DNA of 41,634 bases, taken from the IMG/VR virus record IMGVR_UViG_3300009285_000027, one strand, 5' to 3'. This DNA is from a virus. The notes under the pieces were generated by a model, which ran no database searches, was not told where the DNA came from, and worked only from the letters and a program-made list of their open reading frames with translations. A program made the translations under genes and the position numbers. Positions 1-41,634 of this stretch are shown piece after piece; positions within the stretch are counted from its first letter, which is position 1; every line of letters starts with the position of its first letter.

Positions 1-77
1 TGCCCCCGGCCCGTGCGAGCCGGGGGCGGTAACGCAAGTTCAGGCGCTAACGGACGTGCGCAACATTTTTGTAATTG
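1..77. repeat. Contig-end direct redundancy (1-77 identical to 41558-41634)
   Basis: Read directly: tgcccccggcccgtgcgagccggggg...caacatttttgtaattg is present at both ends. This implies a circular or circularly permuted molecule of 41,557 unique bp. An exact short overlap looks like assembly closure rather than a physical terminal repeat. Confidence 0.95.
2..27 (-). terminator. GC-rich hairpin downstream of CDS 47..700, no U-tract
   Basis: 9-bp perfect stem gcccccggc / gccgggggc with an 8-nt loop, about 20 nt after the TAG stop of the minus-strand CDS. No T-run on either strand, so terminator function is uncertain. Confidence 0.35.
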
Positions 78-700
78 CGCTTTTCGCCGCTTTGGGTGGT
101 GTATTCTTTTCCGTTCTGCCAGTAGACTCGGCAGGGGAGGGAGAATTCACCGGCCACGCGGACATCATGACTGGTGACGTGCTTCATCAGCCCAGCCGCG
201 GCCTCTACAGTCCATTTATTGACTTTCAACTCGGCGTAGTCGTTGTGGGGTTTCTTGCGTTCATTGCCGTAGAACTCGATATTGACCTTGTTGTCGGGTT
301 GGGGCAGGATGCGGACAAATACAGCATCGTAGACGTTCCACGCTTCCCCGTTGGGTGCGGGAGGTACTGCATCGGCCTGAGCTTGCAGTTTGGCGGCTAA
401 TGGTTTATTTCCCTCTTCGAGCGCGATCTGTGCGGGCTTGTCGGGCTGAGGTGCGGGCGCAGCGGGTGCGAGGTTCTTTGACGGGGGTTTTCCGCCTTGT
501 TCGGCAATGGCAAGACGTGTCTCTGCGATGACTTTCATCACAGACGAAACGGAATATCCGCGAATGGTGAGAAGGTGTTCGTACCCATCCGAGTCGATCC
601 ATTTCAGTGTGTCGGATACGGGCGCTTCTGGAAAGCTGGAAAAATATTCGCGCGCGGTTTGTGGCTTGGGTTCCTGTACAATTACTTTTGGTTCTGACAT
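47..700 (-). CDS. Hypothetical early protein, two globular halves joined by an A/P/Q-rich linker
   Basis: ORF track 47..811. The internal ATG at 700 is preceded by AAGGAGA (rc of 705-711). No family recognised. Confidence 0.7.
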   Translation of the reverse strand: MSEPKVIVQEPKPQTAREYFSSFPEAPVSDTLKWIDSDGYEHLLTIRGYSVSSVMKVIAETRLAIAEQGGKPPSKNLAPAAPAPQPDKPAQIALEEGNKPLAAKLQAQADAVPPAPNGEAWNVYDAVFVRILPQPDNKVNIEFYGNERKKPHNDYAELKVNKWTVEAAAGLMKHVTSHDVRVAGEFSLPCRVYWQNGKEYTTQSGEKRNYKNVAHVR

Positions 701-794
701 TGTTTCTCCTTGTGCTCCTGATGACCGTCGGAGCGTGCGTTTGTTTTGCCGCGTAATCGGGCGCGGTTTCCGTGTCTGCGGGCCGGGCAGGGGG

Positions 795-1046
795 TTAGCG
801 GGTGCCTCCAAGTTTTGATTTCAATTTTCCGATCATGGATTCTTGCGGATAAATCAAGGGCCACGGCGTTGTTTCGACGTTGTAAATATCATGACACGCA
901 TCGCAACGTTCGCAATAATCGGGTGAGTGATAATCGTCTGGCATGTACGCAGATGAGTAATGCCTGACAATGCAGCCTATCAAGTTACATATCAGTCGCG
1001 CCCATTGATGCTTGAAGCCAAACCAAAGCTCATCCAGGCCTATCAT
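795..1046 (-). CDS. Hypothetical Cys/His-rich small protein
   Basis: ORF 795..1091. The ATG at 1046 is preceded by GGAAGGAGA and overlaps the upstream stop (ATGA). Contains a CERCDACH motif. Confidence 0.6.
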   Translation of the reverse strand: MIGLDELWFGFKHQWARLICNLIGCIVRHYSSAYMPDDYHSPDYCERCDACHDIYNVETTPWPLIYPQESMIGKLKSKLGGTR

Positions 1047-1399
1047 AGCGGTCTGTCTCCTTCCCGCGTTGTGATGGTCTCCGTCTGCCACTGTGCGATG
1101 TCGCGCTGTTCGTCGGTCTCAAGCGACTGGATGAGCGCGTCCACCTCCGCGCGCTCTTCGGGCGTGCCCAAGTACTTGTCGAGTTCAATGGGCCATTTGA
1201 GCGCCATCAGTTTGCGGTGCCAGTCGCGTGCGAATTTGACATGATGGGTGGCCCATTCCGGGCGACTGGATTTGTACGAGCGTGCGAGATGTATTTCGTT
1301 GGCACGGCAGCGACGGAGCAGCCTGATCTCGGCTTCGCGTCCGAGTTCAACGCGTGGCGCTTCGATCTCTCTGAGTGCGGCGGAGCGGGAGATGGTCAT
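1043..1399 (-). CDS. Hypothetical early protein
   Basis: 118-aa ORF with 4-nt ATGA overlaps to both neighbours (translational coupling). Confidence 0.65.
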   Translation of the reverse strand: MTISRSAALREIEAPRVELGREAEIRLLRRCRANEIHLARSYKSSRPEWATHHVKFARDWHRKLMALKWPIELDKYLGTPEERAEVDALIQSLETDEQRDIAQWQTETITTREGDRPL

Positions 1400-1704
1400 T
1401 CGAGCACCTCCAGCTCTTGCGCAGTTTCGGTGATCTTTTCGTCGTCACGGATGAAGAAATGACGGCAGATTCCAAACGATTTTTCTTCATAACTGTAAAC
1501 AGTCACAAGTGCGTAGTGATATTTTTCTCCCACATTCAGCAGGTGGGCAACGCGTTTCAGACTGGCTTGAGTTACGTGCTTAAAGATAACGCTGTCTTTG
1601 TTTTTCCTGCCAAAACGAACAGACGAGTCGTTTTCAAGTGTGACTGACTTCACGTCCACCACGCTCATTTTCCATCCGTCTGTTGGGTAGAGTAAGTGTC
1701 TCAT
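1396..1704 (-). CDS. Hypothetical early protein
   Basis: 102-aa ORF with GAGAGGAAAC upstream of the ATG at 1704 and ATGA overlaps on both sides. Confidence 0.65.
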   Translation of the reverse strand: MRHLLYPTDGWKMSVVDVKSVTLENDSSVRFGRKNKDSVIFKHVTQASLKRVAHLLNVGEKYHYALVTVYSYEEKSFGICRHFFIRDDEKITETAQELEVLE

Positions 1705-1892
1705 TGTTTCCTCTCGATCTTTTCGTCCAGTTTTGCGAACACACCCTTCGGCTTCTCGATCTCGCAGGACTGGATGGTCAGGTACGGTTGCGTTTTCGCC
1801 TTCTGCATAGCCTCTGCGCGGCTCTTGGCGGGCAGGATCATCGAAAACTGCCGTTCGTCGCGCGTGTCGGTCAGGGTCACAATGTAGTTCAT
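1701..1892 (-). CDS. Hypothetical small early protein
   Basis: 63-aa ORF, coupled by 4-nt overlaps within the same operon. Confidence 0.55.
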   Translation of the reverse strand: MNYIVTLTDTRDERQFSMILPAKSRAEAMQKAKTQPYLTIQSCEIEKPKGVFAKLDEKIERKQ

Positions 1893-2161
1893 TTCACGCC
1901 TACCTGTGCGAGCGCGGCGCGGGCGATCCGTTTTACTGCTGCGGATTTACCAAACGGGCCATTGGCGATTTCTTCCAATGCCTGCGTCAGAGTGGCGATG
2001 GTGGCCTTATCGTCGCTATCGTCGATCTCAAACGTGGTCATTTTCCATTCCTGTTTTTTGCTTACGGGCGCTTCACGTCCCCCAACTGGGCATTGATCGG
2101 TCGAGTAGTGATGGAGGCCGCGTTCGCCTCCGCAGTTCCTGCATTTATCCAATGTGTTCAT
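1889..2161 (-). CDS. Hypothetical protein with N-terminal zinc-ribbon-like CxxC...C motif
   Basis: 90-aa ORF containing CRNCGG...HHYSTDQC, with ATGA overlaps. Confidence 0.6.
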   Translation of the reverse strand: MNTLDKCRNCGGERGLHHYSTDQCPVGGREAPVSKKQEWKMTTFEIDDSDDKATIATLTQALEEIANGPFGKSAAVKRIARAALAQVGVK

Positions 2162-2376
2162 TTCGTTTCCTTTCTGCTGTTCGCTGCCCGCTGCGGGGCG
2201 GGCAGCATCAGTTCTTCGAGCGTCATATTCCCCCAGATGTAATCAGCGGCCGCGCCTTTTTCGCCTACGATGTATTCGGCGCATGAGGCGTACAGAGCCA
2301 CTGCTGCGAGCATGGCGCGGGCGTGCTTGCGCAGATATTCCAAGTCTCTGATTTGTTCGGGGGTGAGTGTGTTCAT
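2158..2376 (-). CDS. First gene of the leftward operon, hypothetical
   Basis: ORF 2158..2382 starts on GTG. The ATG at 2376 lies 6 nt downstream of a TAAAAT -10 box, so a leaderless start at 2376 is preferred. Confidence 0.55.
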   Translation of the reverse strand: MNTLTPEQIRDLEYLRKHARAMLAAVALYASCAEYIVGEKGAAADYIWGNMTLEELMLPAPQRAANSRKETK

Positions 2377-2382
2377 AGACAC

Positions 2383-2388
2383 ATTTTA
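2383..2388 (-). promoter_or_regulatory. Candidate -10 box (TAAAAT) of the leftward early promoter
   Basis: The minus strand reads CCGTTGTAAAATGTGTCTATG, placing the -10 hexamer exactly 6 nt before the ATG. No Shine-Dalgarno sequence. The -35 is poor (TGTTTC). Confidence 0.35.
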
Positions 2389-7852: not shown

Positions 7853-7864
7853 AAAGGTTTGGAA

Positions 7865-8722
7865 ATGCGCCTCGGACAAAACCCCAACAAAAACACTGTC
7901 GTCCAGCCGCGCGCCCGCGTTGTGGTGCTTGTGATTACCCACCTGCCAAGCGTGGAAGGGTATCACGCGGGGCGGTTTGATGTAGTCAAGCGTTCGTTTG
8001 AAACGCTGATAACAAACATGGGCGGACTGGATCATCAATTGATTGTTTGGGACAACGGCTCATCTGATTTGCTTATAGAGTGGCTGGTTAAGCACGGCAT
8101 ACATAAATTTGTTTTGTCGGAAAATGTTGGAAAAACAAACGCGCTAAAATCCATCATGCGTATGCTTCCACCTGATACCATTCTTGCATACGGCGACGAT
8201 GATATAGAGTATTTCCCCAACTGGCTCGCGCCGCAAATTGAGATACTGGAAACATACCCCAACGTTGGCGTGGTGACAGGTTGGCCGGTTAGAATAGCGT
8301 CAAAGTGGGGGGAGAAAAGCGTTGAAAAATTATTTGGGGATGCATGGGGCAAGCCTAAGGTACAAATCAATTCACCTTTCGGAAATTGGCTAATTGAAAC
8401 GGGCCGCTTTATCCCTGACGAATGGGAGCGCGACTATTGCGAGAGCGTGGGCAGGAACTATACCGAATACGCCATGTCAACCAATCTATTGGCAGACACG
8501 CGCATTACCTACAAAGGCATTCAAACCTACGCCACATCCCAGCATTGTCAGTTTGTGTGCTACCCGTCGCGCGTGGAGCGAATGATACAATGGACGGATA
8601 AAGCAATGGCGCCTGAAATAGATTTCGACAAAGCGGTAGACGCGGCGGGCTTGCTGAGGCTCTCGACCGTCGAGAGGTACGCGAGGCACATGGGGAACGT
8701 GCTAGAGAGAGGCAAAACGTGA
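7865..8722 (+). CDS. Family-2-like glycosyltransferase
   Basis: N-terminal beta-strand VVVLVITH, then VWDNGSSD and a GDDDIEY (DxD) motif. The ATG at 7865 is preceded by GAAAGG. Confidence 0.68.
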   Translation: MRLGQNPNKNTVVQPRARVVVLVITHLPSVEGYHAGRFDVVKRSFETLITNMGGLDHQLIVWDNGSSDLLIEWLVKHGIHKFVLSENVGKTNALKSIMRMLPPDTILAYGDDDIEYFPNWLAPQIEILETYPNVGVVTGWPVRIASKWGEKSVEKLFGDAWGKPKVQINSPFGNWLIETGRFIPDEWERDYCESVGRNYTEYAMSTNLLADTRITYKGIQTYATSQHCQFVCYPSRVERMIQWTDKAMAPEIDFDKAVDAAGLLRLSTVERYARHMGNVLERGKT

Positions 8723-8991
8723 CGAGCAAATATTATATAAATCTGGCGCACAAAAACGAACAACAAGAATGGAGTTATGACCATTATTGTCTTGAGTGGA
8801 CCACTAAGCCGCCAGAGGTTGCAGGATTATATAGAGTAAAAAATATACGCGGAGAAATTTTTTGGATGGAGATTTTGTCTGAAAAAGGCATAATCAGTTT
8901 TGAGGGCATGGAAGGAGAAATAAAACCGCTCCCCAAAAATTGGTATACCCATTGGTTTGGGCCTGTCCCAACACCTGAAGAGCCCAAATGA
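8719..8991 (+). CDS. Hypothetical protein
   Basis: 90-aa ORF with a GTG start overlapping the upstream stop (GTGA). Confidence 0.5.
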   Translation: MTSKYYINLAHKNEQQEWSYDHYCLEWTTKPPEVAGLYRVKNIRGEIFWMEILSEKGIISFEGMEGEIKPLPKNWYTHWFGPVPTPEEPK

Positions 8992-9975: not shown

Positions 9976-10029
9976 AAGCGCACCTTGTTTTGAGACTTTA
10001 TGTCTCTTACAAGGTGCGCTTTTTTGTTT
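9976..10029 (+). terminator. Intrinsic terminator directly upstream of the capsid gene
   Basis: aagcgcaccttgt (9976-9988) pairs with acaaggtgcgctt (10009-10021). An inner stem gagac/gtctc is present. The hairpin is followed by TTTTTTGTTT. Confidence 0.7.
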
Positions 10030-10038
10030 GGAGTGAAC

Positions 10039-11937
10039 ATGGACGAAACCAAAACGATCATGGATGCAACAAAAGTAGGGGCACGCAACAACCGCATGGA
10101 CAAAGAGACCATCCAGAAGATGCACGATGCCGCCGTACAACTTGGGGCGGAGTGCGAGCCGATGGAAGATATGGAAAAGAGCGTTGACCCTGAAAGCCTT
10201 GTTTTCGAGGGGGCCGAAGTGAAAGCCGTTGGCAACGGCAAGGTGGCTGGTTATCTTATCCGCTACGGGAATCCGAAGAACGCAGACCTCGAGGGCGATT
10301 TCTTCAACGCCGGGACCGACTACGGTGTAGTGGATGGGGGAACCATCCCGATCTATTATCAGCACGGCTTCGACGGCGCGTTGAAAAACAGGCGCATCGG
10401 CCGCGGTGTAATCAAATTTGACGACGTTGGTCTGTGGCTTGAAGCGCAATTGGAAATGCGCGACGAATACGAAAAGATGCTCTATGACCTCGCAGAGAAA
10501 GGAAAGCTCGGGTGGAGTAGTGGGGCGGCTGGACATCTCGTGGAACGCGAGCAGGTCGGGAAAGCCTACTACATCAAGACATGGCCGATTGCGGAGGGGA
10601 GTCTTACCCCCACCCCCGCAGAGCCTAGAAACACAGTAACACCGCTCAAATCTTTGAGCGTTATTCAGCAGGTGGAAGCAGAGCCAGCCGCGCAGGATAA
10701 GCGCGAAAGCGAGCAGCCTGAAACGAATCAACCAACTGGCAGCAATGCCAAAGGAGTTACGATGGAAATTACCGAAGAAAAACTCCAGGAGATGTTGACG
10801 GAGGCCGCCGAGGCTGGCTCGAAGAAAGCCATTGAAGCGACCGAACCTGTCAATTCCGCTGGAGTTATCCCGGTCACGACCGATGAGGCCGACCGCCCGT
10901 TTAAGACACTGGCAGAACAAGCCATCGCCGTCAAGAACTATTACACCTCTCTCGGTCGCACGGTGGACCCCCGCATCAAACGCTTGCAGGCAATGGAAGC
11001 CAAAGCCGTGCAAGGCGCATCCGAAGGCGTGCCCACGGACGGCGGTATTTTGCTTGAGCCGACCCTGACCGCCGAGGTCATCAAACCAATCCATGAAGAA
11101 GGACCATTCGCCAACGCCGTGCGAAAACTCCCCGTTTCCAATAACAGCAATTCTGGATGGATCAACGGCGTAGACGAAACCAGTCGCGAAACCGGCTCAC
11201 GCTGGGGCGGCCTGCGTGGTTATCGCCTGGCAGAGGGCGAAACGGTTACGAAGAGCAAGCCGAAATTCAGGCGCATTCAGTGGGAACTCAAAAAGTATGG
11301 TGTGCTCGTATATGACACCAACGAGCTTTTGAGGGATGCCGCACAGTTTGCCGCGATCGTGGAGCAAGGGAGCCGGGAAGAAATTGGCTTCATGCTCAAC
11401 GACGACATTCTGAACGGCTTGGGCGTGGCTGGCCCGCAGGGTATCATGCAATCCGGCGCGCTGATTTCCGTGGCGCGCAATACCGCCTCCACGATCAAAG
11501 GCGATGACATCTCCAATATGTGGATGCGGCTCTCTCTGCGCTCGAAGGCGCGCGCGAATTTTTACATCAATCCTGATTGTTCTGCGCAGCTTGACAGTCT
11601 GTTTGCAGTCGGCTCGACCTCCGTCCTGTATCCCTATGCGAGTTACCGCGATGGGGTCCGCACATTGTACGGTCGCCCGATCATCGAAACCGAGTTCAAT
11701 CCGTCGCTCAATACAAGCGGCGATATTCTGCTCGCAGACCTGAACGAGTATCTTCTGTGGGAAAAGGGCAACGTGGAAATGGCAACCTCCATGCACGTTG
11801 AATTCCTGACCGATCAGGAAGTTATCCGCTTCATTTACCGCGCAGACGGTCAGACCGCGCTTGCTTCGGCGCTCACGCCCTACAAAGGTTCAAACAACCG
11901 TTCGCCCTTTGTCGTGCTTGGGTCGGCTTCGGCATAA
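10039..11937 (+). CDS. Prohead protease / delta-like linker / HK97-fold major capsid protein fusion
   Basis: ORF 10000..11937. The ATG at 10039 has GGAG upstream. The N-terminal ~190 aa look like an HK97-type prohead serine protease (YYQHGFDG...GKLGWSSG). A charged helical linker follows, then a capsid-like C-terminal ~300 aa. Confidence 0.85.
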   Translation: MDETKTIMDATKVGARNNRMDKETIQKMHDAAVQLGAECEPMEDMEKSVDPESLVFEGAEVKAVGNGKVAGYLIRYGNPKNADLEGDFFNAGTDYGVVDGGTIPIYYQHGFDGALKNRRIGRGVIKFDDVGLWLEAQLEMRDEYEKMLYDLAEKGKLGWSSGAAGHLVEREQVGKAYYIKTWPIAEGSLTPTPAEPRNTVTPLKSLSVIQQVEAEPAAQDKRESEQPETNQPTGSNAKGVTMEITEEKLQEMLTEAAEAGSKKAIEATEPVNSAGVIPVTTDEADRPFKTLAEQAIAVKNYYTSLGRTVDPRIKRLQAMEAKAVQGASEGVPTDGGILLEPTLTAEVIKPIHEEGPFANAVRKLPVSNNSNSGWINGVDETSRETGSRWGGLRGYRLAEGETVTKSKPKFRRIQWELKKYGVLVYDTNELLRDAAQFAAIVEQGSREEIGFMLNDDILNGLGVAGPQGIMQSGALISVARNTASTIKGDDISNMWMRLSLRSKARANFYINPDCSAQLDSLFAVGSTSVLYPYASYRDGVRTLYGRPIIETEFNPSLNTSGDILLADLNEYLLWEKGNVEMATSMHVEFLTDQEVIRFIYRADGQTALASALTPYKGSNNRSPFVVLGSASA

Positions 11938-28716: not shown

Positions 28717-28950
28717 ATGCAGTACACTCCGAGACCTGAGGACTTCGAGAAACTTGAGAACAACTTTAAGTATCATGCGCCGAAGCCTGACCAACCCGAA
28801 CGCTATGAGGCAATTCGAGCGAAGGCAAAGGAATTTGCTGAGTTGCTTGTGAAAAATTGCCCGCCTAGCCGCGAGTTATCGGTGTCCCTCACCGAACTTG
28901 AAACGTCAGTTATGTGGGCAAATGCATCAATTGCCCGTAACGAAAAGTAA
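28717..28950 (+). CDS. Small helical-hairpin protein of a widespread phage family (possibly Acb2/Tad1-hairpin-like)
   Basis: 77 aa with AAAGGAGA RBS. Motif FKYHAP...ERYEAIRAKAKEFAELL...SRELSVSLTELETSVMWANASIA. The family assignment is from memory and unverified. Confidence 0.6.
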   Translation: MQYTPRPEDFEKLENNFKYHAPKPDQPERYEAIRAKAKEFAELLVKNCPPSRELSVSLTELETSVMWANASIARNEK

Positions 28951-29171: not shown

Positions 29172-29199
29172 CAGACAACGCGGCTCCGATAGAAAAATG

Positions 29200-29237
29200 G
29201 AAACCTCCCGACTTCTGCTTTCGAGTCGGGAGGTTTC
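29200..29237. terminator. Bidirectional intrinsic terminator at the convergence of the two arms
   Basis: gaaacctcccgact (29200-29213) pairs with agtcgggaggtttc (29224-29237), a perfect 14-bp stem. The minus strand continues CAUUUUUCU and the plus strand ends in UUUCGUU. Confidence 0.8.
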
Positions 29238-29252: not shown

Positions 29253-29378
29253 GCACAACGGCTTGCGTTACTGGCTTTGCGGTAGCCCGCAGTGCCGACA
29301 CAATTTACTAACCTCATTCGCCGGCTCGAACTTTTCGCAGGTGCATACCAGCAAAGTCCGCTGCACGCGGTGTTGGGC
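29253..29378 (-). mobile_element. attC-like site D (126 bp)
   Basis: The minus strand reads GCCCAAC-ACCGC-GTGCAGCGGAC ... GCCAGTAAC-GCAAGCC-GTTGTGC. The TAA stop of CDS 29268..29558 lies in the TAAC box. The 5' half pairs with the 3' half (CUUUGC/GCAAAG). Confidence 0.7.
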
Positions 29379-29558
29379 GGCGCGGCCTTGCTCCTCAACT
29401 TCGTATTGATAGAAACCGAGACAGCCGCCGACATTTCCAGCCAGTGAGCCACGCTTTATTTCTTTCGCAGCATCACGCACCAACGCGGCGATGTCTTCAA
29501 TCTCGTCGGCGTAGACAGTTAGGGTGAGTTTCAACTCTGCGTTTTCAACAATTGCCAT
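29268..29558 (-). CDS. Cassette ORF, hypothetical (C-terminal CxC...CxxC encoded by the attC-like element)
   Basis: 96-aa ORF. The last ~37 codons are read from attC-like site D. Confidence 0.6.
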   Translation of the reverse strand: MAIVENAELKLTLTVYADEIEDIAALVRDAAKEIKRGSLAGNVGGCLGFYQYEVEEQGRAAQHRVQRTLLVCTCEKFEPANEVSKLCRHCGLPQSQ

Positions 29559-29584: not shown

Positions 29585-29603
29585 ATAGAACGGCTTGTGT
29601 TAC
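29585..29603 (-). mobile_element. Degenerate attC 3' half-site G
   Basis: The minus strand reads GGGTAAC-ACAAGCC-GTTCTAT. The stop of CDS 29600..29827 lies in the TAAC box. No matching RYYYAAC was found upstream. Confidence 0.35.
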
Positions 29604-29827
29604 CCGTGGCGGCGTACTCCTATCCACGGATAACTCATATAAAAAGTTTCAATCTCTGGATCATTGTGGCATAGTTTTGTAAATATTCTGCCATCTTTCC
29701 CTGTTTCAATATCGAAGCATGAAAATCTACCAGCCGCTAAAACTGCCGCTTTGATATTTTTATACGTGCGCCTCTTGCCGCGCAAATCAGACACGGTGTC
29801 AAAACTATCTAAATATATAACGCTCAT
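29600..29827 (-). CDS. Cassette ORF, hypothetical
   Basis: ORF 29600..29851. The ATG at 29827 follows GAAAGAAAGG. Confidence 0.55.
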   Translation of the reverse strand: MSVIYLDSFDTVSDLRGKRRTYKNIKAAVLAAGRFSCFDIETGKDGRIFTKLCHNDPEIETFYMSYPWIGVRRHG

Positions 29828-29857
29828 TTTGCCTTTCTTTCGGACAGCCACGAAGCC

Positions 29858-29963
29858 ACCTAACGGCTTGTATTACCCGCGAGTGGGCGGGATAAACTTT
29901 CAGACTAGATAAATGCCTGCAAACGGAGAGCATACCCATCATCCGCTGCACGCATTGTTAGGC
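29858..29963 (-). mobile_element. attC-like site E (106 bp, fully intergenic)
   Basis: The minus strand reads GCCTAAC-AATGC-GTGCAGCGGAT ... CCCGCCCACTCGCGGGTAAT-ACAAGCC-GTTAGGT. It starts 3 nt after the TAG of CDS 29967..30185. Confidence 0.75.
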
Positions 29964-29966: not shown

Positions 29967-30185
29967 CTAATTTCCTTCAAGATACAAATAAGACTTTTCC
30001 TTGCGCTTATTTTCTTCACTCATGGTTGGATGTGAGCGCATTATCCAGCCACCTTCGTTTTCGACTCCCTGAACAACATGCCATTCATCTTCTGAAATAA
30101 TTTCATAATCGCTATAGCGACCATTCAGGATTTCCATATCATCAGGATATTGTTCCAACATCTTTTTCAATTGACCTACGTTCAT
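29967..30185 (-). CDS. Cassette ORF, hypothetical acidic protein
   Basis: ORF 29967..30188. The ATG at 30185 lies 7 nt after AAAGGAGA. Confidence 0.6.
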   Translation of the reverse strand: MNVGQLKKMLEQYPDDMEILNGRYSDYEIISEDEWHVVQGVENEGGWIMRSHPTMSEENKRKEKSYLYLEGN

Positions 30186-30209
30186 CACGTTTCTCCTTTC
30201 GCAAGAAAA

Positions 30210-30335
30210 CGACTAACGGCTTGCGTTAGCGGCAGGGCGAACAGATAGAGCAATATAAATTGCCATGTTCGTCCATCTTGAAAGCCGCACTGTTTACGTG
30301 GGTGCAAGCCCCGTCGGCTGCACGCGGTGTTAGAA
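30210..30335 (-). mobile_element. attC-like site C (126 bp)
   Basis: The minus strand reads TTCTAAC-ACCGC-GTGCAGCCGACGG ... GCCGCTAAC-GCAAGCC-GTTAGTC. The TAA of CDS 30226..30477 lies in the TAAC box. Confidence 0.75.
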
Positions 30336-30477
30336 GGCATCTCTCGCATTTCACCTTCTTGGGGGCAACTTTGCAATAGCGATACACTTCATGACCACAT
30401 TCAAGTTTCAACATGCGACCATAGCTATCACCATAAGATACTGACAAAACCTTTGAGTAATTTCTGTAATCTGACAT
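30226..30477 (-). CDS. Cassette ORF, zinc-ribbon-like small protein
   Basis: 83 aa with CGH...C, CERC and CSICSPC. The C-terminal ~36 codons are read from attC-like site C. Confidence 0.6.
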   Translation of the reverse strand: MSDYRNYSKVLSVSYGDSYGRMLKLECGHEVYRYCKVAPKKVKCERCLLTPRAADGACTHVNSAAFKMDEHGNLYCSICSPCR

Positions 30478-30484: not shown

Positions 30485-30554
30485 TTCTAACGGTTTGCGT
30501 TACTGGCGCAAGCCTTATAAGTTTATTTTTCACGCGCCTTGCGGCGGGTTGATC
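30485..30554 (-). mobile_element. attC-like site F (70 bp)
   Basis: The minus strand reads GATCAAC-CCGCCGCAAGGCGCG ... GGCTTGCGCCAGTAAC-GCAAACC-GTTAGAA. The internal dyad GCCGCAAGGC / GGCTTGCGCC pairs at 8 of 10 positions. Confidence 0.6.
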
Positions 30555-30834
30555 CGCATATCGCACACGTAACGGCATCTGTGCCGATCAAAGCATACTC
30601 CGCACCACAATCGGCACAAACCGGCTGCCGCGCGCTGGGATGGGCGGCCTCTGCTTCTTTGATTGCATTGTAAACCGCCTCGTAGGCGCGATTGTATATG
30701 TCTGTAAATTCCGCGCTCGGCCACGGAAGATGCCGTGCGATGGCATCACGTACTGGCGCCATAAACTTTTCGACGCGCTGATCACCCTCCCACCATGGTT
30801 TTATCGGGACTGTTACAGCCTCGTCTTTTTTCAT
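30523..30834 (-). CDS. Hypothetical protein with C-terminal zinc ribbon
   Basis: 103 aa with CADCG...CAICG and ATGA overlap to the upstream gene. Confidence 0.6.
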   Translation of the reverse strand: MKKDEAVTVPIKPWWEGDQRVEKFMAPVRDAIARHLPWPSAEFTDIYNRAYEAVYNAIKEAEAAHPSARQPVCADCGAEYALIGTDAVTCAICGSTRRKAREK

Positions 30835-31163
30835 TTCGTCTCCGTTCTGTTTGGGCGTGTGTTCTTTGACATTAGTTTTATCTGTTCTCTCTTATCGTTG
30901 AAGTATTTCAGTGCTTCCGGAATTCGATGAAACCAGCGCGGCAAAATTCGGTAGGGGTTGGGCGGAGTTATCAAACCCAGTGCGTTCAATATCTTTTCGT
31001 CTTGTGGAACGTAGTTTGCATCATCCACAAAACGCTGGAGAGTTCCAAACTTTATCTCTCCGCCGTAGTAGTCACGAGCGATGACGCGGTAGGATTTCAC
31101 GACCTTATGCAGGCGGCGCAGCTGTGACTTTGCTTTCCTGATTTTGGCTTTAGACGGTTTCAT
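30831..31163 (-). CDS. Hypothetical basic protein
   Basis: 110-aa Lys/Arg-rich ORF. Confidence 0.55.
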   Translation of the reverse strand: MKPSKAKIRKAKSQLRRLHKVVKSYRVIARDYYGGEIKFGTLQRFVDDANYVPQDEKILNALGLITPPNPYRILPRWFHRIPEALKYFNDKREQIKLMSKNTRPNRTETK

Positions 31164-31264
31164 TTGGTGGCGGCTTTCCGTATATGTTTTTTAGTAGCTC
31201 ACGCAGGTGTCACGGGCGGTGACGGGCATTGTAATTCTGGTTGTGCGACCCCAAAACGCCCGTT

Positions 31265-31387
31265 TCACTTCTTCGGCGGCTTGCGTAGGTCGCGCCAGGC
31301 GATGTACGCCAGGGCGCACGCGATCCCGGCCACAACCCATGCGACCTGTGCGCATAACTCCCAACCACGAGTGATACTGTCATCCAT
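31265..31387 (-). CDS. Possible 40-aa single-TM peptide (below the ORF-track cutoff)
   Basis: ATG (rc of 31385-31387) to TGA (31265-31267), giving MDDSITRGWELCAQVAWVVAGIACALAYIAWRDLRKPPKK. More protein-like than the overlapping Arg-rich 66-aa track ORF 31210..31410. Confidence 0.35.
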   Translation of the reverse strand: MDDSITRGWELCAQVAWVVAGIACALAYIAWRDLRKPPKK

Positions 31388-31395
31388 TTTTGTCT

Positions 31396-31429
31396 CACTT
31401 TTTCACTCACTTGTCACTTCACTTCACTT
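31396..31429. repeat. Cluster of cactt pentamers (five copies, three in tandem at 31415-31429)
   Basis: Read directly. On the gene-sense strand it is a purine-rich AAGTG array just upstream of the small TM ORF. Confidence 0.8.
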
Positions 31430-31480
31430 CGCTTTTTCGCTTTACGGGTAAATCTGCATTCCAGGCGTGTAAATAATATG

Positions 31481-32032
31481 TCAGTGGGGGATAGGCGGTA
31501 AAGGATTTCCATTGGCAATCTTACGCACAAGTTTCCAGTCCCCTACCGTATCGGGAGAGTTTGCGTGTTCGGATTTGCGGAACAACGCGCCGTAGTGCCT
31601 CCACTTGTTCTTGAGTTCTACAAACTCAGAGCGCGGAAACTTCCCTGACTTGACCCAGAAACCCTCAGTCGTATCAACCTTGTCCAAGCCCCAGTCACTC
31701 CGCATCTGAATTAGCGTGCGCGCAAATCCGCGTTCCTTGTCGAATTTTACAAGGTCAACCGTCATTTGATTTACGACGCCATTGATGCGGACTGGCGGCA
31801 TGATGCGTTGGGCGGGCCGCTTGGGAGCCTCTGGCGCGTGTGATGTGTATTCAAGGTCTGACTTCTCAGCTCGCAGTAAAAAGATTGCATGACAGCAAGC
31901 GACAAAGCCGAAACCAAAGTAAATGGAGTAACTGAACCACGGAGACCACTTACCGCCAAAGTTGTAAACCAAATAGACGCCTGCTAACAGGCTTGCATTT
32001 GGAAACAACCAGTAGTAATGCTGGACATACAT
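31481..32032 (-). CDS. Membrane protein (two N-terminal TM helices + soluble C-terminal domain)
   Basis: 183 aa with TAATG overlap to the upstream gene. Confidence 0.65.
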   Translation of the reverse strand: MYVQHYYWLFPNASLLAGVYLVYNFGGKWSPWFSYSIYFGFGFVACCHAIFLLRAEKSDLEYTSHAPEAPKRPAQRIMPPVRINGVVNQMTVDLVKFDKERGFARTLIQMRSDWGLDKVDTTEGFWVKSGKFPRSEFVELKNKWRHYGALFRKSEHANSPDTVGDWKLVRKIANGNPLPPIPH

Positions 32033-32283
32033 TACACGTCTCTCACTTGTTCGCGTCTCAGAATGATCGGCCCTTCCCCTTTCGACACATTACCGTGATA
32101 GCGATTGATATAGACTCGGAGTGTGCCGTCGGGCTGCTCGTAATATTTGCAATCATACGCGGCGATCCCCATGTCGCGCGTTTCTTTATCGTAGATCACG
32201 TTCCCATTTTTCAACATTCGGTTGACGCCGATAATGGTGATCGTGTCGATGGGGATTAGATCATCGCCTACAATCTCAGGCAT
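32032..32283 (-). CDS. Hypothetical protein
   Basis: ORF 32032..32394. The ATG at 32283 overlaps the upstream TAA (TAATG). Confidence 0.55.
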   Translation of the reverse strand: MPEIVGDDLIPIDTITIIGVNRMLKNGNVIYDKETRDMGIAAYDCKYYEQPDGTLRVYINRYHGNVSKGEGPIILRREQVRDV

Positions 32284-32420
32284 TATCTTTTTCTCAACAC
32301 AATCAGGAAGAACACAATCACAGCGGCAACGATTGGTAACGCCGCATCTCCAATCTCGACCCACTGTGCAACCACGATAATGGAAGAACCGCACGCGAAG
32401 ATGAAAGCAATGATGAGCAT
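32283..32420 (-). CDS. 45-aa double-TM mini-protein
   Basis: ORF 32283..32522. The ATG at 32420 follows AGGAA. Sequence MLIIAFIFACGSSIIVVAQWVEIGDAALPIVAAVIVFFLIVL. Confidence 0.45.
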   Translation of the reverse strand: MLIIAFIFACGSSIIVVAQWVEIGDAALPIVAAVIVFFLIVLRKR

Positions 32421-32448
32421 GATTCCTGCAATTCTGTTCCTGGACACG

Positions 32449-32565
32449 TTACGCCTCCGTGAAAATCTTCCACGCCCACCACAACAAAAACAGGAGTCCC
32501 GGAACTGTGAGCACAACGACAAGTAGAATTTCTCTGACGCGAGTAACCTTGTTTTTATCCATCAT
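32449..32565 (-). CDS. 38-aa single-TM mini-protein (below the ORF-track cutoff)
   Basis: ATGATG start (rc of 32560-32565) overlapping the upstream stop. Sequence MMDKNKVTRVREILLVVVLTVPGLLFLLWWAWKIFTEA. Confidence 0.35.
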   Translation of the reverse strand: MMDKNKVTRVREILLVVVLTVPGLLFLLWWAWKIFTEA

Positions 32566-32758
32566 TCACATCCTTGAAATAATAGCCTGGGTCGTCCTGC
32601 ATCGGCGGCGTTTCGTGCGGCTCAGCGGGAGTGTGGTCCGAGTGAAACCAGATGGGTGGCAGTGGCACGATGCCTTTCCGCCACAGAAACGAAATCAGGA
32701 TAGCGGCGATGAGGCCGAATACAAAAAACAGAATGGAGGCGTTCTCGGGATTACTCAT
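32555..32758 (-). CDS. 67-aa single-TM protein
   Basis: ATGA overlap to the upstream gene. TM segment ILFFVFGLIAAILISFLW. Confidence 0.5.
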   Translation of the reverse strand: MSNPENASILFFVFGLIAAILISFLWRKGIVPLPPIWFHSDHTPAEPHETPPMQDDPGYYFKDVNDG

Positions 32759-32967
32759 TTTGACCTGATGAAATTGATGCTGTTATCTTCTTCGTCAATC
32801 ACAACCTTTTCAACCCGGCCTGCACGATACGCCTGTTCAATTTCGCGCCTTACGCGGCGGGATGATCTCCGATTGATTTTCCATACTGCAAAACGCGAAC
32901 TGCCTTTTAATAAAATAAATGTGGCAGTAAAAAACAAAATACCAAATGGAAGGAACGAGTCTATCAT
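32755..32967 (-). CDS. 70-aa single-TM protein
   Basis: ATGA overlaps. TM segment FLPFGILFFTATFILL followed by a basic tail. Confidence 0.5.
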   Translation of the reverse strand: MIDSFLPFGILFFTATFILLKGSSRFAVWKINRRSSRRVRREIEQAYRAGRVEKVVIDEEDNSINFIRSK

Positions 32968-33164
32968 TGGTTGCGTTCCGTCTCATGCAGATGCAGAGTA
33001 CACACGTCATACCACCACTGCATAATGGCATTTTTCGCCTTACGCCCAACGTTATTCTCAATTTCACTCTCTGATGCGTTTGCGACAGCTTCAAAAAAAG
33101 TCTCGCGTTCTTTTGCAGGCAGATTGTCTTCCGAGTTTATAGCGGTCAACAGTTTCGTAAACAT
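32964..33164 (-). CDS. Hypothetical small protein
   Basis: 66-aa ORF with GGAAAGGA upstream of the ATG. Confidence 0.55.
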   Translation of the reverse strand: MFTKLLTAINSEDNLPAKERETFFEAVANASESEIENNVGRKAKNAIMQWWYDVCTLHLHETERNQ

Positions 33165-33175
33165 GCTTATATCCT

Positions 33176-33195
33176 TTCCAACGGTCTCGGTTAGC
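33176..33195 (-). mobile_element. Degenerate attC 3' half-site H
   Basis: The minus strand reads GCCGCTAAC-CGAGACC-GTTGGAA. The TAA of CDS 33191..33400 lies in the TAAC box. Confidence 0.35.
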
Positions 33196-33400
33196 GGCTC
33201 TTCTTGTAGCGGGAATTACGAATGTCATCCATGTCCATTGCATGGATTTCGCCACCACCTTGTTGAGTGGCTTCACGAACTCGCTCGATAGTATGATTGA
33301 GGTTGATGACGGCTGCGCCAAGATAGTTTTGCGCTCTCTCGTCTCCAATTTTCACAACACGCAATTTTTCTACAATACTCATCAATTCATCAAGATACAT
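33191..33400 (-). CDS. Hypothetical small helical protein
   Basis: ORF 33191..33457. The ATG at 33400 follows GAGGAGG. Confidence 0.6.
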   Translation of the reverse strand: MYLDELMSIVEKLRVVKIGDERAQNYLGAAVINLNHTIERVREATQQGGGEIHAMDMDDIRNSRYKKSR

Positions 33401-34226: not shown

Positions 34227-34353
34227 GCCTAACGGCTTGCGTTACCCGCAAGTGGCGGGCGTAGCATCTTCCCAAAGAATAGAATCACCTTCAGGGTGGA
34301 TAAGATAATTTTGGCGGGCGAATCCCACTTGTCGGGTGGACGCTGTGTTAGAT
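34227..34353 (-). mobile_element. attC-like site A (127 bp)
   Basis: The minus strand reads ATCTAAC-ACAGC-GTCCACCCGAC ... CGCCCGCCACTTGCGGGTAAC-GCAAGCC-GTTAGGC. The TAA of CDS 34242..34985 lies in the TAAC box. The next ATG (34219) is 8 nt after the core. Confidence 0.75.
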
Positions 34354-34985
34354 GCGGTAATGCCTTCAAGCGCGTCAAGGATTTCGCACCACAGATCGAG
34401 CGGGACTACTGCGCGTTCAGCCGCGCCAGATAAACCCTGTACCCCTGTTTGAGACCCACGCGGGGCGGACTCGTGACACTTGCGCCCATTCTTGCAAATC
34501 GGACGAGGCGACCAGCCAGGGACAAATCCCCAAAGATCGGTCGGCTTCATGTTCTTATCACCATACTGGCAATAAGTGATCGTTGTTCGTGGTAGAGTTT
34601 TCATAAATGGCAACTTACGTAATACTCCGCGTGGATTTTCGATAATGAAGGCTTTAGGTTTCATGTCTCGGATAATTTGCAAGGTATGCTTGACCAACCT
34701 TTGAGACAATTCAGCGTGTGGCGTTTTTGGAATATACGCTCTCGCACCACCACCCCAATGATGCCCCATTGCCGCAACACTAAACGCTTCACATGGCGGG
34801 GATGCCCACACAAAATCGAAATATCCGAACTTCTCTGCTGTCATTTCAAAAATATCAGCCGTTATTGTGCAGTTAAATTCTGGCACATAATCAAGCGTGA
34901 TGTATTCATGCCCGCGTTGTTCTATAAACGCGCGTCTTTGATTGCCACCAATGCCAGCGAACAGATCAAGGATTTTCATAAGCAT
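34242..34985 (-). CDS. DNA (cytosine-5)-methyltransferase
   Basis: Motif I DLFAGIGG, motif IV SPPCEAFS, ENPRG, and a C-terminal AVVPLDLW motif X-like segment. The start is ATG 34985 or 34979. The last ~40 codons are read from attC-like site A. Confidence 0.85.
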   Translation of the reverse strand: MLMKILDLFAGIGGNQRRAFIEQRGHEYITLDYVPEFNCTITADIFEMTAEKFGYFDFVWASPPCEAFSVAAMGHHWGGGARAYIPKTPHAELSQRLVKHTLQIIRDMKPKAFIIENPRGVLRKLPFMKTLPRTTITYCQYGDKNMKPTDLWGFVPGWSPRPICKNGRKCHESAPRGSQTGVQGLSGAAERAVVPLDLWCEILDALEGITASNTASTRQVGFARQNYLIHPEGDSILWEDATPATCG

Positions 34986-35001
34986 CTAACTACTGCGTAA
35001 G
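34984..35001 (-). mobile_element. Core-site-containing half-site I (5' boundary of the first methyltransferase cassette)
   Basis: The minus strand reads CGCTTAC-GCAGTA-GTTAGAT, and the GTTAGATG core overlaps the ATG at 34985. No RYYYAAC partner was found upstream. Confidence 0.45.
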
Positions 35002-35045
35002 CGGACGGTTTCCGCATAAGACACCGCCGGGGGACAAAAAGCCGC

Positions 35046-35486
35046 CTAGCATTCCCGCTCCGCGACCAGCGCACGGAGGTCTATCACTGACCACTTCCAT
35101 TTCTTCGGCATCGCTAGTTCCGTCAATTCCACCATGACGCTTTCACCGTAAGTTTTGAGCATGTAGTTATCATAATAATAATGCCAGTGGTTGTGCGCGC
35201 CGTTGCAGGTTGAGCATTGGCAATTACAATTTCTTAGATCGTACCGAATGCGCTGTTTGCCCGCTGGTATCCAATGACTAATCGTCAAACCTTCCGTTGC
35301 CCCGCAGGTGACACAGCAACCATCACGGGCTTTCACAAAATCGGCTGTCAGATTCCATAGTTTCTCTTCCAGTTGACGACGTTCCGATTTTGAACGGCGG
35401 CGCTTCTGCTTCTTTTGCTTCACCGGCTTGGGTTTACCGATGATGGTCATAACTTCGTGGTGTTGCGCGGCGCGGAGGGTATTCAT
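35046..35486 (-). CDS. ninG: NinG/Rap-like structure-specific (HNH-like) endonuclease
   Basis: Basic N-terminus, then CCVTCG...SHW...RIRYDLRN...CQCSTCN, matching the lambda NinG pattern C-x2-CG...H...R(F/Y)..RN...QC..CN. Confidence 0.65.
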   Translation of the reverse strand: MNTLRAAQHHEVMTIIGKPKPVKQKKQKRRRSKSERRQLEEKLWNLTADFVKARDGCCVTCGATEGLTISHWIPAGKQRIRYDLRNCNCQCSTCNGAHNHWHYYYDNYMLKTYGESVMVELTELAMPKKWKWSVIDLRALVAEREC

Positions 35487-36112
35487 TTACATCTTCCACA
35501 TTCGCAGGCGGGCGGAACCTTCGCGTCAATCGCGGCGAGAATGGCCTTCGCGTCAATCGCGGCGAGAATGGCCTTCGCTTTATTCTCCGCTTTCTCTGCC
35601 TGCCGTTCGTTGTACATGACGGGAATAACAAGGTGCTCGTATGTCTCACGGCAGCGGTAGACAGTGAAACATTGCCGCCAACCGCCGTAACGCATGTAAA
35701 GTTGGACCTGAATGAAATGCTTGTAGGAGGCCTTCATTTCCTTGCGGATACGCTCGAACTTGTCCACGGTCAACGATTTGATCTCCAGCAGGTCGTTATC
35801 CAGGGTCAACCCGTCGATGTGACCACACAGGCGGTCATCAAACGGGGCGATCACGCCGTATCCATTATCCATACAGCCGATACCTGATTTTTGCAGGAGC
35901 GACAAAACGCTCCGCTCCTGCTCATATCCTGCAAAGCAAAAACGATGCGTGGCTTCTGAGATTTCCCCTACGCCGTCAAAATATTCGTTGTACGCCGCGC
36001 GTGGGCAACCTGATATTTTGGAAATGCCGAGATACTCTCGGTGCTGATCCAGTCCGCTATTTGCGGCGATCTGCTGAGTGAGTGTATTTTGAATTTCGTT
36101 TACAGTTGTCAT
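35483..36112 (-). CDS. PD-(D/E)XK nuclease, Cas4/RecB-like with putative Fe-S cysteines
   Basis: Catalytic-type motif GHIDG...LEIKS. One N-terminal Cys (GCPRAAY) plus a C-terminal CECGRC cluster. Confidence 0.7.
   Translation of the reverse strand: MTTVNEIQNTLTQQIAANSGLDQHREYLGISKISGCPRAAYNEYFDGVGEISEATHRFCFAGYEQERSVLSLLQKSGIGCMDNGYGVIAPFDDRLCGHIDGLTLDNDLLEIKSLTVDKFERIRKEMKASYKHFIQVQLYMRYGGWRQCFTVYRCRETYEHLVIPVMYNERQAEKAENKAKAILAAIDAKAILAAIDAKVPPACECGRCK
35518..35578. repeat. Perfect 27-bp tandem duplication (2.3 copies), in frame, inside the nuclease gene
   Basis: ccttcgcgtcaatcgcggcgagaatgg occurs at 35518-35544 and 35545-35571, then ccttcgc. Encodes AILAAIDAK twice. Confidence 0.95.
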
Positions 36113-40395: not shown

Positions 40396-40401
40396 TATAA
40401 C

Positions 40402-40430
40402 ATCATAAGGGTTTCCGCGGCGAAAGTCAA
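40402..40430 (-). promoter_or_regulatory. Near-consensus sigma70 promoter
   Basis: The minus strand has TTGACT (40430-40425), a 17-nt spacer and TATGAT (40407-40402). Confidence 0.55.
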
Positions 40431-40462
40431 GTACCAATTTCCGCGCCATCTGTACTCACACG

Positions 40463-40714: not shown

Positions 40715-40734
40715 CTCAGTTTCCTTTCTCGCGC

Positions 40735-40953
40735 TCAGGCTGCGTGGACCGCGCCTGTATCCATGTCCATCAAAAATAGGGTGCGAGCCTCGGCCAGCGC
40801 CTCCCAGTGTTTTCCGGCGTCACAGTCAGCCACCAGTTGCGCGCGGGGGCGGCTGATGAATTCGTTTACCGTCCCGTTTTCCAGTGCGGCTAAAATGATC
40901 CTTGTGTCGTTGGTGACGATGCTGCCAATTCGGGCGGCTACAATTTCGTCCAT
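40735..40953 (-). CDS. Hypothetical small protein
   Basis: ORF 40735..40974. The ATG at 40953 follows GAGGAAGAGAAG. Confidence 0.55.
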   Translation of the reverse strand: MDEIVAARIGSIVTNDTRIILAALENGTVNEFISRPRAQLVADCDAGKHWEALAEARTLFLMDMDTGAVHAA

Positions 40954-40955
40954 AT

Positions 40956-41225
40956 TCACTTCTCTTCCTCGCACTCACGCAGTGCGGCATACAATCTGTG
41001 GAGAGCGTGCGCCATGCCGATGTTTGGCATTTTCTCCTGGTCGGCAGACTCAACATCCCGCGCGGCCCGTTCCAGCCGTTCATAGGCGGCGAGCTTCACT
41101 TGCAGTCCGTGGACATAATCCACGGCGCGGGAGGTCTCGCTGCACTCTTTGCAGATGACGTATGGATAAGACGCCGTCTGCGGGCGTTGGCAGACCATGC
41201 AAGTGGTTTCGTAGTATTGGCTCAT
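40956..41225 (-). CDS. Hypothetical zinc-binding small protein
   Basis: 89 aa with CMVC...CKEC and ATGA overlap. Confidence 0.6.
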   Translation of the reverse strand: MSQYYETTCMVCQRPQTASYPYVICKECSETSRAVDYVHGLQVKLAAYERLERAARDVESADQEKMPNIGMAHALHRLYAALRECEEEK

Positions 41226-41437
41226 GTTTCCTCAAACAATCTGGCGCGCCGCTTCTCCAGCAGCGCGGCTTTGTGGCTCCATGTGCGGGCCAGTTCGCGC
41301 GCTTCGGCGCGTTGGGTGGGTGTCAATTCGTGGTTCACCGCGCGCTGCATGTACTCGCGGTGTAGACGGACCGCTTCGTTGAGTTGCTCGATCACGGCCT
41401 CGGTTGCCTGTTCGTGGGGTGAGATGTAGTCGGCCAT
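41222..41437 (-). CDS. Hypothetical helical small protein
   Basis: ORF 41222..41452 has a TTG start. The ATG at 41437 is preferred. Confidence 0.55.
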   Translation of the reverse strand: MADYISPHEQATEAVIEQLNEAVRLHREYMQRAVNHELTPTQRAEARELARTWSHKAALLEKRRARLFEET

Positions 41438-41456
41438 TACACAACGCGCCAATCTT

Positions 41457-41540
41457 TCAACTGGCCGAGCGGTTTTTGTTCATCGTTAGCGAGCCGCTCG
41501 ATCTCGGCTTGCAGTTCGGCTTCTCGATTTCGACTTTCAT
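41457..41540 (-). CDS. Possible 27-aa ORF with a strong RBS (frame problem, see findings)
   Basis: GAGAGGAACC upstream of the ATG (rc of 41538-41540). The neighbouring frame looks more protein-like but lacks a start codon. Confidence 0.25.
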   Translation of the reverse strand: MKVEIEKPNCKPRSSGSLTMNKNRSAS

Positions 41541-41557
41541 GGTTCCTCTCGTTTCTG

Positions 41558-41634
41558 TGCCCCCGGCCCGTGCGAGCCGGGGGCGGTAACGCAAGTTCAG
41601 GCGCTAACGGACGTGCGCAACATTTTTGTAATTG
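41558..41634. repeat. Second copy of the 77-bp contig-end redundancy
   Basis: Identical to 1-77. Confidence 0.95.

Follow-up and report, generated by a model that had tools for sequence, protein, structure and literature searches.

An array of attC sites in a groundwater phage

The IMG/VR virus record IMGVR_UViG_3300009285_000027 comprises 41,634 nt, which were analysed over their whole length and are called the window here. Its early region contains an array of repeats, interspersed with small genes, that a preliminary description made from the letters alone had regarded as attC-like, i.e. as the recombination sites of integron cassettes. The array lies between the gene for a NinG/Rap-like endonuclease and an intrinsic terminator (Table 1).

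A comparison of the ends of the window revealed that bases 1–77 are identical to bases 41558–41634. This direct terminal repeat indicates that the assembly, of about 41,557 bp, is circular or has terminal redundancy. The same phage is present in independent assemblies with lengths of 41,325–41,550 bp. The exact portal protein was found on 19 public contigs and the exact NinG protein on 16, several of them 41.3–41.55 kb long and some from groundwater metagenomes. This recurrence shows that the phage is real and recurrent, and not a chimera. The phage is a tailed one from groundwater communities, and its genome is complete in the window.

The 15-mer AACGGYTTGYRTTAC has seven copies between positions 29,257 and 34,245, all on the plus strand, while 0.55 copies are expected, and the 3′ motif has four copies (0.44 expected). 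Ends resembling GCACGCGGTGTTAGGC follow four to five of the AACGGYTTGYRTTAC copies at distances of 57–162 nt, and each interval between the sites holds open reading frames (ORFs) on the minus strand. The cassette ORFs differ in the frame in which they read the repeat, which shows that the repeat is an element at the DNA level and not a protein motif.

A covariance model, R1, was built solely from bacterial sites (see below) and run unfiltered over the whole window. It matched sites G, C, A, and D with 72.1, 53.3, 50.3, and 48.8 bits (E 1e-14 to 1e-22), on the plus strand only, and nothing comparable elsewhere, in agreement with the earlier proposal of an attC-like array. The long loops of sites E and F are beyond the reach of R1, and these two sites were recognised by their motifs. 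Five sites are intact (A, C, D, F, and G) and three are decayed (B, E, and H), with site lengths of 106–195 nt. In all of them the plus strand corresponds to the recombinogenic bottom strand, and the cassette ORFs all lie on the opposite (top) strand.

For R boxes, the rule is that 5′-RYYYAAC-3′ (R′, bottom strand) pairs with 5′-GTTRRRY-3′ (R″), with conserved AAC/GTT triplets. The boxes of the intact sites are GCACAAC/GTTGGGC (A), ACCTAAC/GTTAGGC (C), GACTAAC/GTTAGAA (D), GCCCAAC/GTTAGGC (F), and GCCTAAC/GTTAGAT (G). Site E, which has GAT, and sites B and H do not follow the rule. Sites A, D, F, and G have both an extrahelical T and a GC bulge.

Cury et al. (2016) defined the CALIN (cluster of attC sites lacking an integrase) as at least two clustered attC sites (4-kb rule) on the same strand, with no intI nearby (PMC4889954). 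The phage array has five intact sites on one strand, its largest gap is 3.1 kb (from D to F), and the replicon contains no intI. At the upstream border of the array, the decayed site H comes directly after NinG, and neither intI nor attI was seen there (attI has no general model). Judged by sequence and predicted folding, we are dealing with true attC sites and, in the array, with a CALIN in a phage, as had been suggested.

Table 1 Features of the array, of its cassettes, and of the remaining phage genome
Feature	Position	Strand	Evidence
Site H, decayed, upstream border; ATCTAAC-TACT-GCGT, then noise	34984-35075 (3′ extent approximate)	+	read from sequence; missed by R1
attC site G, intact; + strand = bottom strand	34227-34353	+	R1 72.1 bits, E 1.8e-22
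attC site F, both conserved ends intact, ~160-nt central loop	33421-33615	+	5′ motif and exact 3′ motif
Site E, 5′ half intact, 3′ half decayed (GATGGGC for GTTGGGC), overlaps zinc-ribbon ORF at 30523-30834	30485-30645	+	5′ motif, repeat family D1, R1 11 bits
attC site D, intact	30211-30335	+	R1 48.8 bits, E 1.2e-14
attC site C, intact	29858-29963	+	R1 53.3 bits, E 3.5e-16
Site B, half-site: 5′ motif and short hairpin, L″/R″ side absent	29585-29645	+	R1 5.9 bits, not significant
attC site A, intact, last of array	29253-29378	+	R1 50.3 bits, E 3.8e-15
Cassette 1: C5 DNA methyltransferase, 247 aa	34242-34985	-	PF00145 6.9e-10; phrog_757 5.4e-24
Cassette 2: second DNA methyltransferase, 223 aa	33548-34219	-	phrog_757 7.1e-50
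Multigene segment, 2.9 kb, ~10 tightly packed small ORFs, several membrane-like	30523-33400	-	bracketed by GCCCAAC (F) and GATGGGC (E)
Cassette ORF, 83 aa, no assigned function, CxxC motifs, reads through site D	30226-30477	-	
Cassette ORF, 73 aa, no assigned function	29967-30188	-	
Cassette ORF, 83 aa, no assigned function	29600-29851	-	
Last cassette ORF, 96 aa, no assigned function, reads into site A	29268-29558	-	
Strong hairpin and U-run, intrinsic terminator closing the leftward operon just past the array	29190-29237	-	-27.3 kcal/mol, tail CCAUUUUUCU
NinG/Rap-like junction endonuclease, last backbone gene upstream of array	35046-35486	-	PF05766; phrog_5034 1.4e-14
Early genes: O-like replication initiator (Rep_O), Cas4/RecE-like exonuclease, NinG/Rap	29.2-41.6 kb plus 0-3.3 kb	-	
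Small terminase (PF03592), large terminase (phrog_979, 7.5e-38)	within 3.3-29.2 kb	+	Pfam, PHROGs
Portal, tail genes, GH25 lysin	within 3.3-29.2 kb	+	Pfam/PHROGs
Family-2 glycosyltransferase, between portal region and capsid gene, among head-morphogenesis genes	7859-8722	+	PF00535, 8e-10
Prohead protease and major capsid protein in one 645-aa ORF	10000-11937	+	Peptidase_S78 (weak); PF05065, 1.6e-34

Boundaries and contents of the cassettes

Cassettes that have passed through a circular intermediate carry a signature, i.e. the R′ at the start of the cassette is complementary to the R″ of the cassette's own attC. Exact pairs were found at the junctions H/G (ATCTAAC-GTTAGAT), G/F (GCCTAAC-GTTAGGC), F/E (GCCCAAC-GATGGGC), and E/D (TTCTAAC-GTTAGAA), and the junction D/C has one mismatch. 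Four of the seven junctions are thus exact and one has a single mismatch, with a chance expectation of 0.147 per junction. Two of the matching box types, ATCT/AGAT and TTCT/AGAA, are rare in the family (neither exceeds a frequency of 2.5%). Among neighbouring sites of bacterial arrays, 57 of 65 pairs have a 3′ box complementary to the 5′ box that follows, with the same expectation of 0.147. Such complementarity is what remains of a former circular state of the cassettes, in which they were closed at G|TT. In the window, too, the cassettes are delimited within the R box and show the R′/R″ complementarity expected after passage through a circular intermediate.

The first two cassettes encode DNA methyltransferases, which probably protect the phage DNA from host restriction. 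A homologue of the first one (74% identity) is located between two attC sites in another locus, L093 (L numbers denote the loci that were compared), and a homologue of the second one (42% identity) in L054 between attC matches at 8065–8190 and 8808–8932. The occurrence of both genes between attC sites with different neighbours indicates that they travel as cassettes. In formal terms, the block between sites E and F counts as a “cassette” with several genes and with a decayed attC (E). At least one of its ORFs, that of 110 aa, has a homologue in viral contig L092, about 3.4 kb from a homologue of the window's GH25 lysin gene.

The small cassette ORFs often run deep into or through their own attC site, e.g. 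those at 30523–30834, 30226–30477, and 29268–29558 in the window and at 6427–6786 in L059. Several of these read-through ORFs have CxxC zinc-ribbon motifs that are partly encoded by the interior of the attC site.

The attC family in bacterial integrons

Prokaryotic genomes, one per species, were scanned with a two-ended pattern, which yielded at least 120 loci. Among the matches listed, 89 of 120 genome loci were labelled Chloroflexota, mostly Anaerolineales, with up to eight sites per 8 kb. Several of the matching Chloroflexota-labelled metagenome-assembled genomes (MAGs) stem from groundwater, like the phage. At L127, L178, L187, and other loci the pattern was seen in MAGs labelled Candidatus Brocadia (2.28-Mb contig), Ignavibacteriota (1.63-Mb contig), and, for an archaeon, Candidatus Nitrosotenuis (3.7-kb contig).

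A set of 103 non-redundant bacterial sites fits one structure. The fraction of paired cells is 90.9%, compared with 78% after shuffling and about 38% when the partners were slid. Compensatory (double-sided) cells number 324 versus 125 in the shuffles, and none of 500 shuffles reached 324. From the outside inwards, the structure consists of the AAC:GTT box (invariant in 103/103 sites), an unpaired central spacer of 5 versus 3 nt (GGYTT versus TKT), the GCGT:ACGC box (paired in 102–103 sites), an internal loop of T versus GC, and a covarying stem of 5 bp, followed by a conserved unpaired T, a stem that covaries throughout, and a loop that varies. Of the 103 sites, 98 have the unpaired T and 99–102 the GC bulge, both in the 3′ arm of the motif strand. 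This is the arm opposite the AAC triplet, in which the extrahelical bases of a bottom strand are known to lie (PMC5027507). In the inner stem, 10 of 11 pairs have double-sided changes and 91.7% of the cells are paired, with a covariation score of 0.336 versus 0.123 after shuffling. The stem that RNAalifold had proposed was one column off register around the extrahelical T; it was replaced by a manual structure, which was then tested.

Full-length IntI proteins with 47–53% identity to IntI1 adjoin the same sites in six bacterial loci (L125, L126, L157, L164, L175, and L186); in a seventh, L217, an IntI adjoining the same site family is cut by the end of the locus. Seven IntI proteins, four from bacterial (L125, L157, L175, and L186) and three from viral loci (L027, L059, and L117), scored 396–490 bits on TIGR02249, which has a cut-off of 265. 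In L125, L126, L164, L175, L186, and L217 intI and the array diverge from each other, a layout that makes the motif strand the bottom strand and the ORF strand the top strand, as in the window.

In sequence and predicted structure, the sites of the window belong to the attC family of the chromosomal integrons of Anaerolineales/Chloroflexota, a phylum for which integrons were already listed by Cury et al. (PMC4889954). The CALIN of the phage has most likely been fed by integrons of the Chloroflexota type. That the family flanks TIGR02249 integrases suggests, by association, that the sites of the window may be IntI substrates. The expectation that integrons with similar attC sites would be found among potential hosts was borne out in that the clade using this family encodes IntI beside such arrays.

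Searches for a recombinase in the phage genome

The preliminary description had stated that the closed genome is devoid of any recombinase and had proposed profile searches of the six frames. In a Pfam scan of the circularised sequence, the 102 ORFs of at least 90 aa from six frames (18,139 aa; none of them across the junction) contained no Phage_integrase, Resolvase, Recombinase, rve/DDE, or telomere resolvase at E≤0.01. The same scan recovered the portal, capsid, TerS, GH25, DNA_methylase, NinG, and Rep_O. It was run on concatenated ORFs, and DNA_methylase was found with 1.9e-9 in the concatenated set versus 6.9e-10 alone, so that concatenation cost no sensitivity. With a threshold as lax as E≤10, tblastn with IntI1 had no match in the window, whereas 17 loci elsewhere were matched in the same search (the matches were re-validated with the NCBIfam model TIGR02249). 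A hidden Markov model (HMM) of 12 IntI/tyrosine recombinases, run with --max and thus without filters on 1042 six-frame stop-to-stop fragments of at least 25 aa, had a best E-value of 0.44. When 37 ORFs from the early region, from the cassettes, and, in a few cases, from elsewhere were compared one by one with PHROGs or Pfam, no match to an integrase, excisionase, repressor, transposase, or partition protein was obtained.

The genome contains neither an integron integrase nor any other recognisable site-specific recombinase, and the earlier statement therefore stands. A complete integron would have an intI adjoining the array, and the Pfam, tblastn, and HMM searches of the window found none. 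The equipment of a temperate phage (integrase, transposase, partition system, or telomere resolvase, together with a repressor) did not turn up in the Pfam and PHROGs scans either; many small ORFs are unannotated, so the absence of a temperate module is not proven. A non-integrating lifestyle, which the preliminary description had considered, is consistent with the data: the searches brought up no lysogeny genes, and all of the 19 portal and 16 NinG contigs are 50 kb or shorter.

Integrases of the same family on other viral contigs

An exact scan of viral contigs with the 15-mer revealed many with two to five co-oriented copies, and their stems covary visibly (ACCCG..T.CGGGT, ACTGG..CCAGT, AGCGG..CCGCT). 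At least about 26 viral contigs have two or more matches to the model. In the IMG/VR loci L027, L059/L240, and L117, arrays of the same attC family are preceded immediately by a full intI in the same orientation. A search of viral contigs with a single IntI protein returned only close relatives (78–100% identity), which are unrelated to the phage of the window.

Contig L046 has ten attC sites, and its tape-measure and tail proteins are 31–48% identical to those of the window. It carries the 3′ end of an intI, with the crossover box GTTAGTT about 15 nt past the stop codon. The 3′ end of intI in L246 is exactly that of L046 and extends it to residue ~57, and its first cassette is a different one (a methylase with a DPPF motif). 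A shared intI end followed by different first cassettes is the one direct sign of cassette exchange in this analysis.

Together, the contigs suggest that attC arrays are frequent in viral metagenome contigs, some of them with a phage-borne intI, and more so than the 17 cases in 10,705 GenBank phages (see below). The intI genes upstream of arrays of the same kind also imply that the orphan state of the window's array may be due to the secondary loss of a phage-borne intI.

Origin of the array and alternative explanations

Taken as a whole, the results are best explained if the distal end of the early operon consists of integron cassettes with their attC sites, which entered via an IntI acting in trans or via a phage intI that has since been lost. 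We assign this explanation a probability of roughly 0.7. Cassettes would enter by IntI-catalysed recombination between two attC sites, or between attC and a secondary site, while the phage DNA is inside an integron-bearing cell. The integrase would be supplied in trans by a chromosomal integron of the host, and it could also come from a co-infecting phage that bears intI; alternatively, it may once have been encoded by the phage lineage itself and lost later. Judged by the attC type, the donors would be Anaerolineales-like. Since no Pc promoter was recognised, the cassettes would be expressed by read-through from the early promoters of the phage, which would take the place of Pc, as far as the terminator behind site A. 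The methylases would shield the phage from restriction. The five intact sites would stay substrates for any IntI that the phage meets, with infrequent exchange on the timescale sampled. It is plausible that a host IntI mobilises the cassettes in trans and that cassettes are actively swapped. The folded single strand needed for this might come from intermediates of phage replication, as the preliminary description had proposed.

Several observations weigh against this explanation. Nine assemblies from several samples are 98.4–100% identical over 28.0–35.6 kb and have the same cassettes; a turnover of cassettes among strains was looked for in these nine assemblies, and none was seen. Of the eight sites, three are decayed, and a segment such as that between E and F, with ~10 phage-like genes in 2.9 kb, is atypical for a cassette. 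Secondary markers of a bottom strand are missing: the purine fraction of the window's sites is 0.46–0.54, and the family has no bias for G:T in the bottom strand (31 G:T versus 27 A:C mispairs). The link of the phage to a host is drawn from the attC family. About a quarter of the genome matches listed are in MAGs with other labels, many on short contigs, and the matches in Brocadia and Ignavibacteriota, among those listed, are on contigs of more than 1 Mb. The matches outside the Chloroflexota could be due to a spread of cassettes across phyla or to binning errors.

The array might instead be a fossil, derived from a phage-borne integron that lost its intI or captured en bloc from a host integron by illegitimate recombination, its genes being fixed accessory genes on which no IntI acts. 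The viral contigs L027, L059, L117, L046, and L246, with a co-oriented intI directly upstream and the same attC family, are compatible with this, as are the tail genes of L046 (31–48% amino acid identity to those of the window), the decay of B, E, and H, and the identical array in the nine assemblies. However, the five intact sites still have all conserved elements, with scores like those of bacterial sites, and no remnant of an intI pseudogene was detected by the HMM (best E 0.44) or by tblastn (none at E≤10). Moreover, an en-bloc capture leaves unexplained why a phage-like multigene block with matching boxes is present inside the array. We regard a fossil as unlikely, though as an explanation to be taken seriously.

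A role of the hairpins at the level of RNA or transcription, as terminators, as sites of RNase III-type processing, or as stabilisers of mRNA (cf. the early genes of T7), would fit their location between co-transcribed small genes and their long, imperfect stems, and attC sites have been considered weak terminators (PMC9892861). Yet neither strand prefers G:U to A:C (31 versus 27). The rules for attC sites are followed both by the AAC/GTT boxes and by the bases that are conserved and unpaired. The complementarity of boxes across cassettes and the linkage to intI in bacteria have no explanation at the RNA level, and we deem such a role in place of recombination highly improbable.

The same verdict applies to a cryptic recombinase of the phage, i.e. 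a protein of an unrecognised family, or a split or programmed-frameshifted one, that the profiles missed. Many early ORFs have no family match (e.g. those of 254, 250, 191, and 183 aa), but the IntI proteins tied to this attC family are 47–53% identical to IntI1 and would be trivially detectable, and the searches with six-frame fragments were negative. To our knowledge, attC recombination is known for IntI only.

There is a very slight chance that the circular phage is itself a giant integron cassette, which the IntI of the host would insert as a whole into a chromosomal integron (attC × attI or attC × attC) and excise again; if so, this would be lysogeny by a borrowed integrase, with the integron as the attachment platform. 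A chimeric assembly, with integron DNA of a host misjoined into the phage contig, is practically negligible: attC repeats are a classic cause of misassembly, but both junctions of the array, with NinG upstream and with the terminator and the Acb2-like and DUF5662 genes downstream, recur across independent assemblies from different assemblers and samples, which excludes it.

Further observations on the phage genome

The sole difference in length among the nine assemblies mentioned above is an indel of 48 nt inside an ORF. The bases at 33248–33295 are absent from seven of the nine other assemblies (two lack coverage); they belong to a 69-aa ORF after site F and are not located at an attC boundary.

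Just across the terminator from the array, a 77-aa ORF on the plus strand (28717–28950) is a candidate anti-CBASS/Thoeris sponge. Precomputed Pfam matches of identical copies contain PF24729 (Acb2_Tad1_hairpin), and phrog_1454 matches with 3e-26. A perfect tandem duplication of 27 nt (2.3 copies; 35518–35578) is present at the 3′ end of the gene for the Cas4/RecE-like exonuclease, where the peptide AILAAIDAK is repeated. BLAST against GenBank phages revealed no relative of the phage and only short matches to the methylases. Scans of the window with Rfam, which contains no attC family, and for tRNAs gave nothing relevant, and a scan for tandem repeats gave nothing relevant to the array.

Comparison with known systems and significance

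Canonical attC sites, such as VCR2 and attC-aadA7 (Nivina et al. 2016, PMC5027507), share with the family described here the R box with AAC/GTT, an unpaired spacer, the L box, extrahelical bases in the arm facing AAC, and a variable terminal structure. Counted from the 3′ end, the unpaired bases are G16/C15 and T22 here, G16, T20, and T24 in VCR2, and G16 and T23 in attC-aadA7 (PMC5027507). The length of the family is comparable to that of VCR2, which has 133 nt (PMC5027507). In contrast to canonical sites, the irregularity of the L box is an internal loop of T versus GC and not a single bulged G, the spacer has 5 versus 3 nt, and the family is without a purine or G:T skew to the bottom strand.

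With the sedentary chromosomal integrons of Anaerolineales/Chloroflexota (e.g. L217, L141, and L203), the array of the phage shares the attC family of ~120–130 nt (AACGGYTTGCGTTA ... T ... GCACGCTKTGTT), the strand logic, and the cassette-boundary signature. The arrays of Chloroflexota differ in having a divergent intI (TIGR02249) at one end and many more, and more uniform, sites. In the window no intI, attI, or Pc was recognised, and the array is proposed to be transcribed from the early operon of the phage. The viral integrons (L059/L240, L027, L117, L046, and L246) have in common with it the attC family, small cassettes including methylases, and the position at the end of an operon. Their intI is co-oriented with the array, unlike the divergent intI of the chromosomal integrons of Chloroflexota; at the corresponding border, the window has NinG and a decayed attC site.

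CALINs in phages have been described before. Qi, Rajabal, Ghaly, Tetu and Gillings (2023, Front Microbiol; PMC9892861) report 17 CALINs in 10,705 GenBank phage genomes, those of virulent phages included, often with methyltransferase cassettes and occasionally with multi-ORF intervals between the sites. IntI1 recombined five of the six phage attC sites that were tested, among them sites of virulent phages (PMC9892861). The array of the window resembles these CALINs in its co-oriented attC sites and cassettes, the lack of intI, the methyltransferases, and the multi-ORF interval. According to the same paper, they occur in temperate, virulent, and uncharacterised phages, and a route of cassette exchange with IntI from bacteria was proposed (PMC9892861). 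The phages came from cultured or named hosts; those named in the sections consulted are Tetrasphaera, Polaribacter, Pseudoalteromonas, Vibrio, E. coli, and Shewanella, and Chloroflexota are not among them (PMC9892861). In comparison with what is described there, the phage of the window is uncultivated, its attC sites are tied to integrons of the Anaerolineales type, and the R′/R″ signature is preserved.

Phage CALINs that include methylase cassettes are thus an established kind of element, and the window is another instance of it. Added here are an uncultivated groundwater phage, an attC family of the Chloroflexota type, and an unusually clear cassette-boundary signature. The typing of attC sites offers a clue to the host or the donor for orphan phages. 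The example, which is clean and has strong statistics behind it, supports the view that phages are users of the cassette pool, here of anti-restriction methylases, and vehicles for cassettes between cells.

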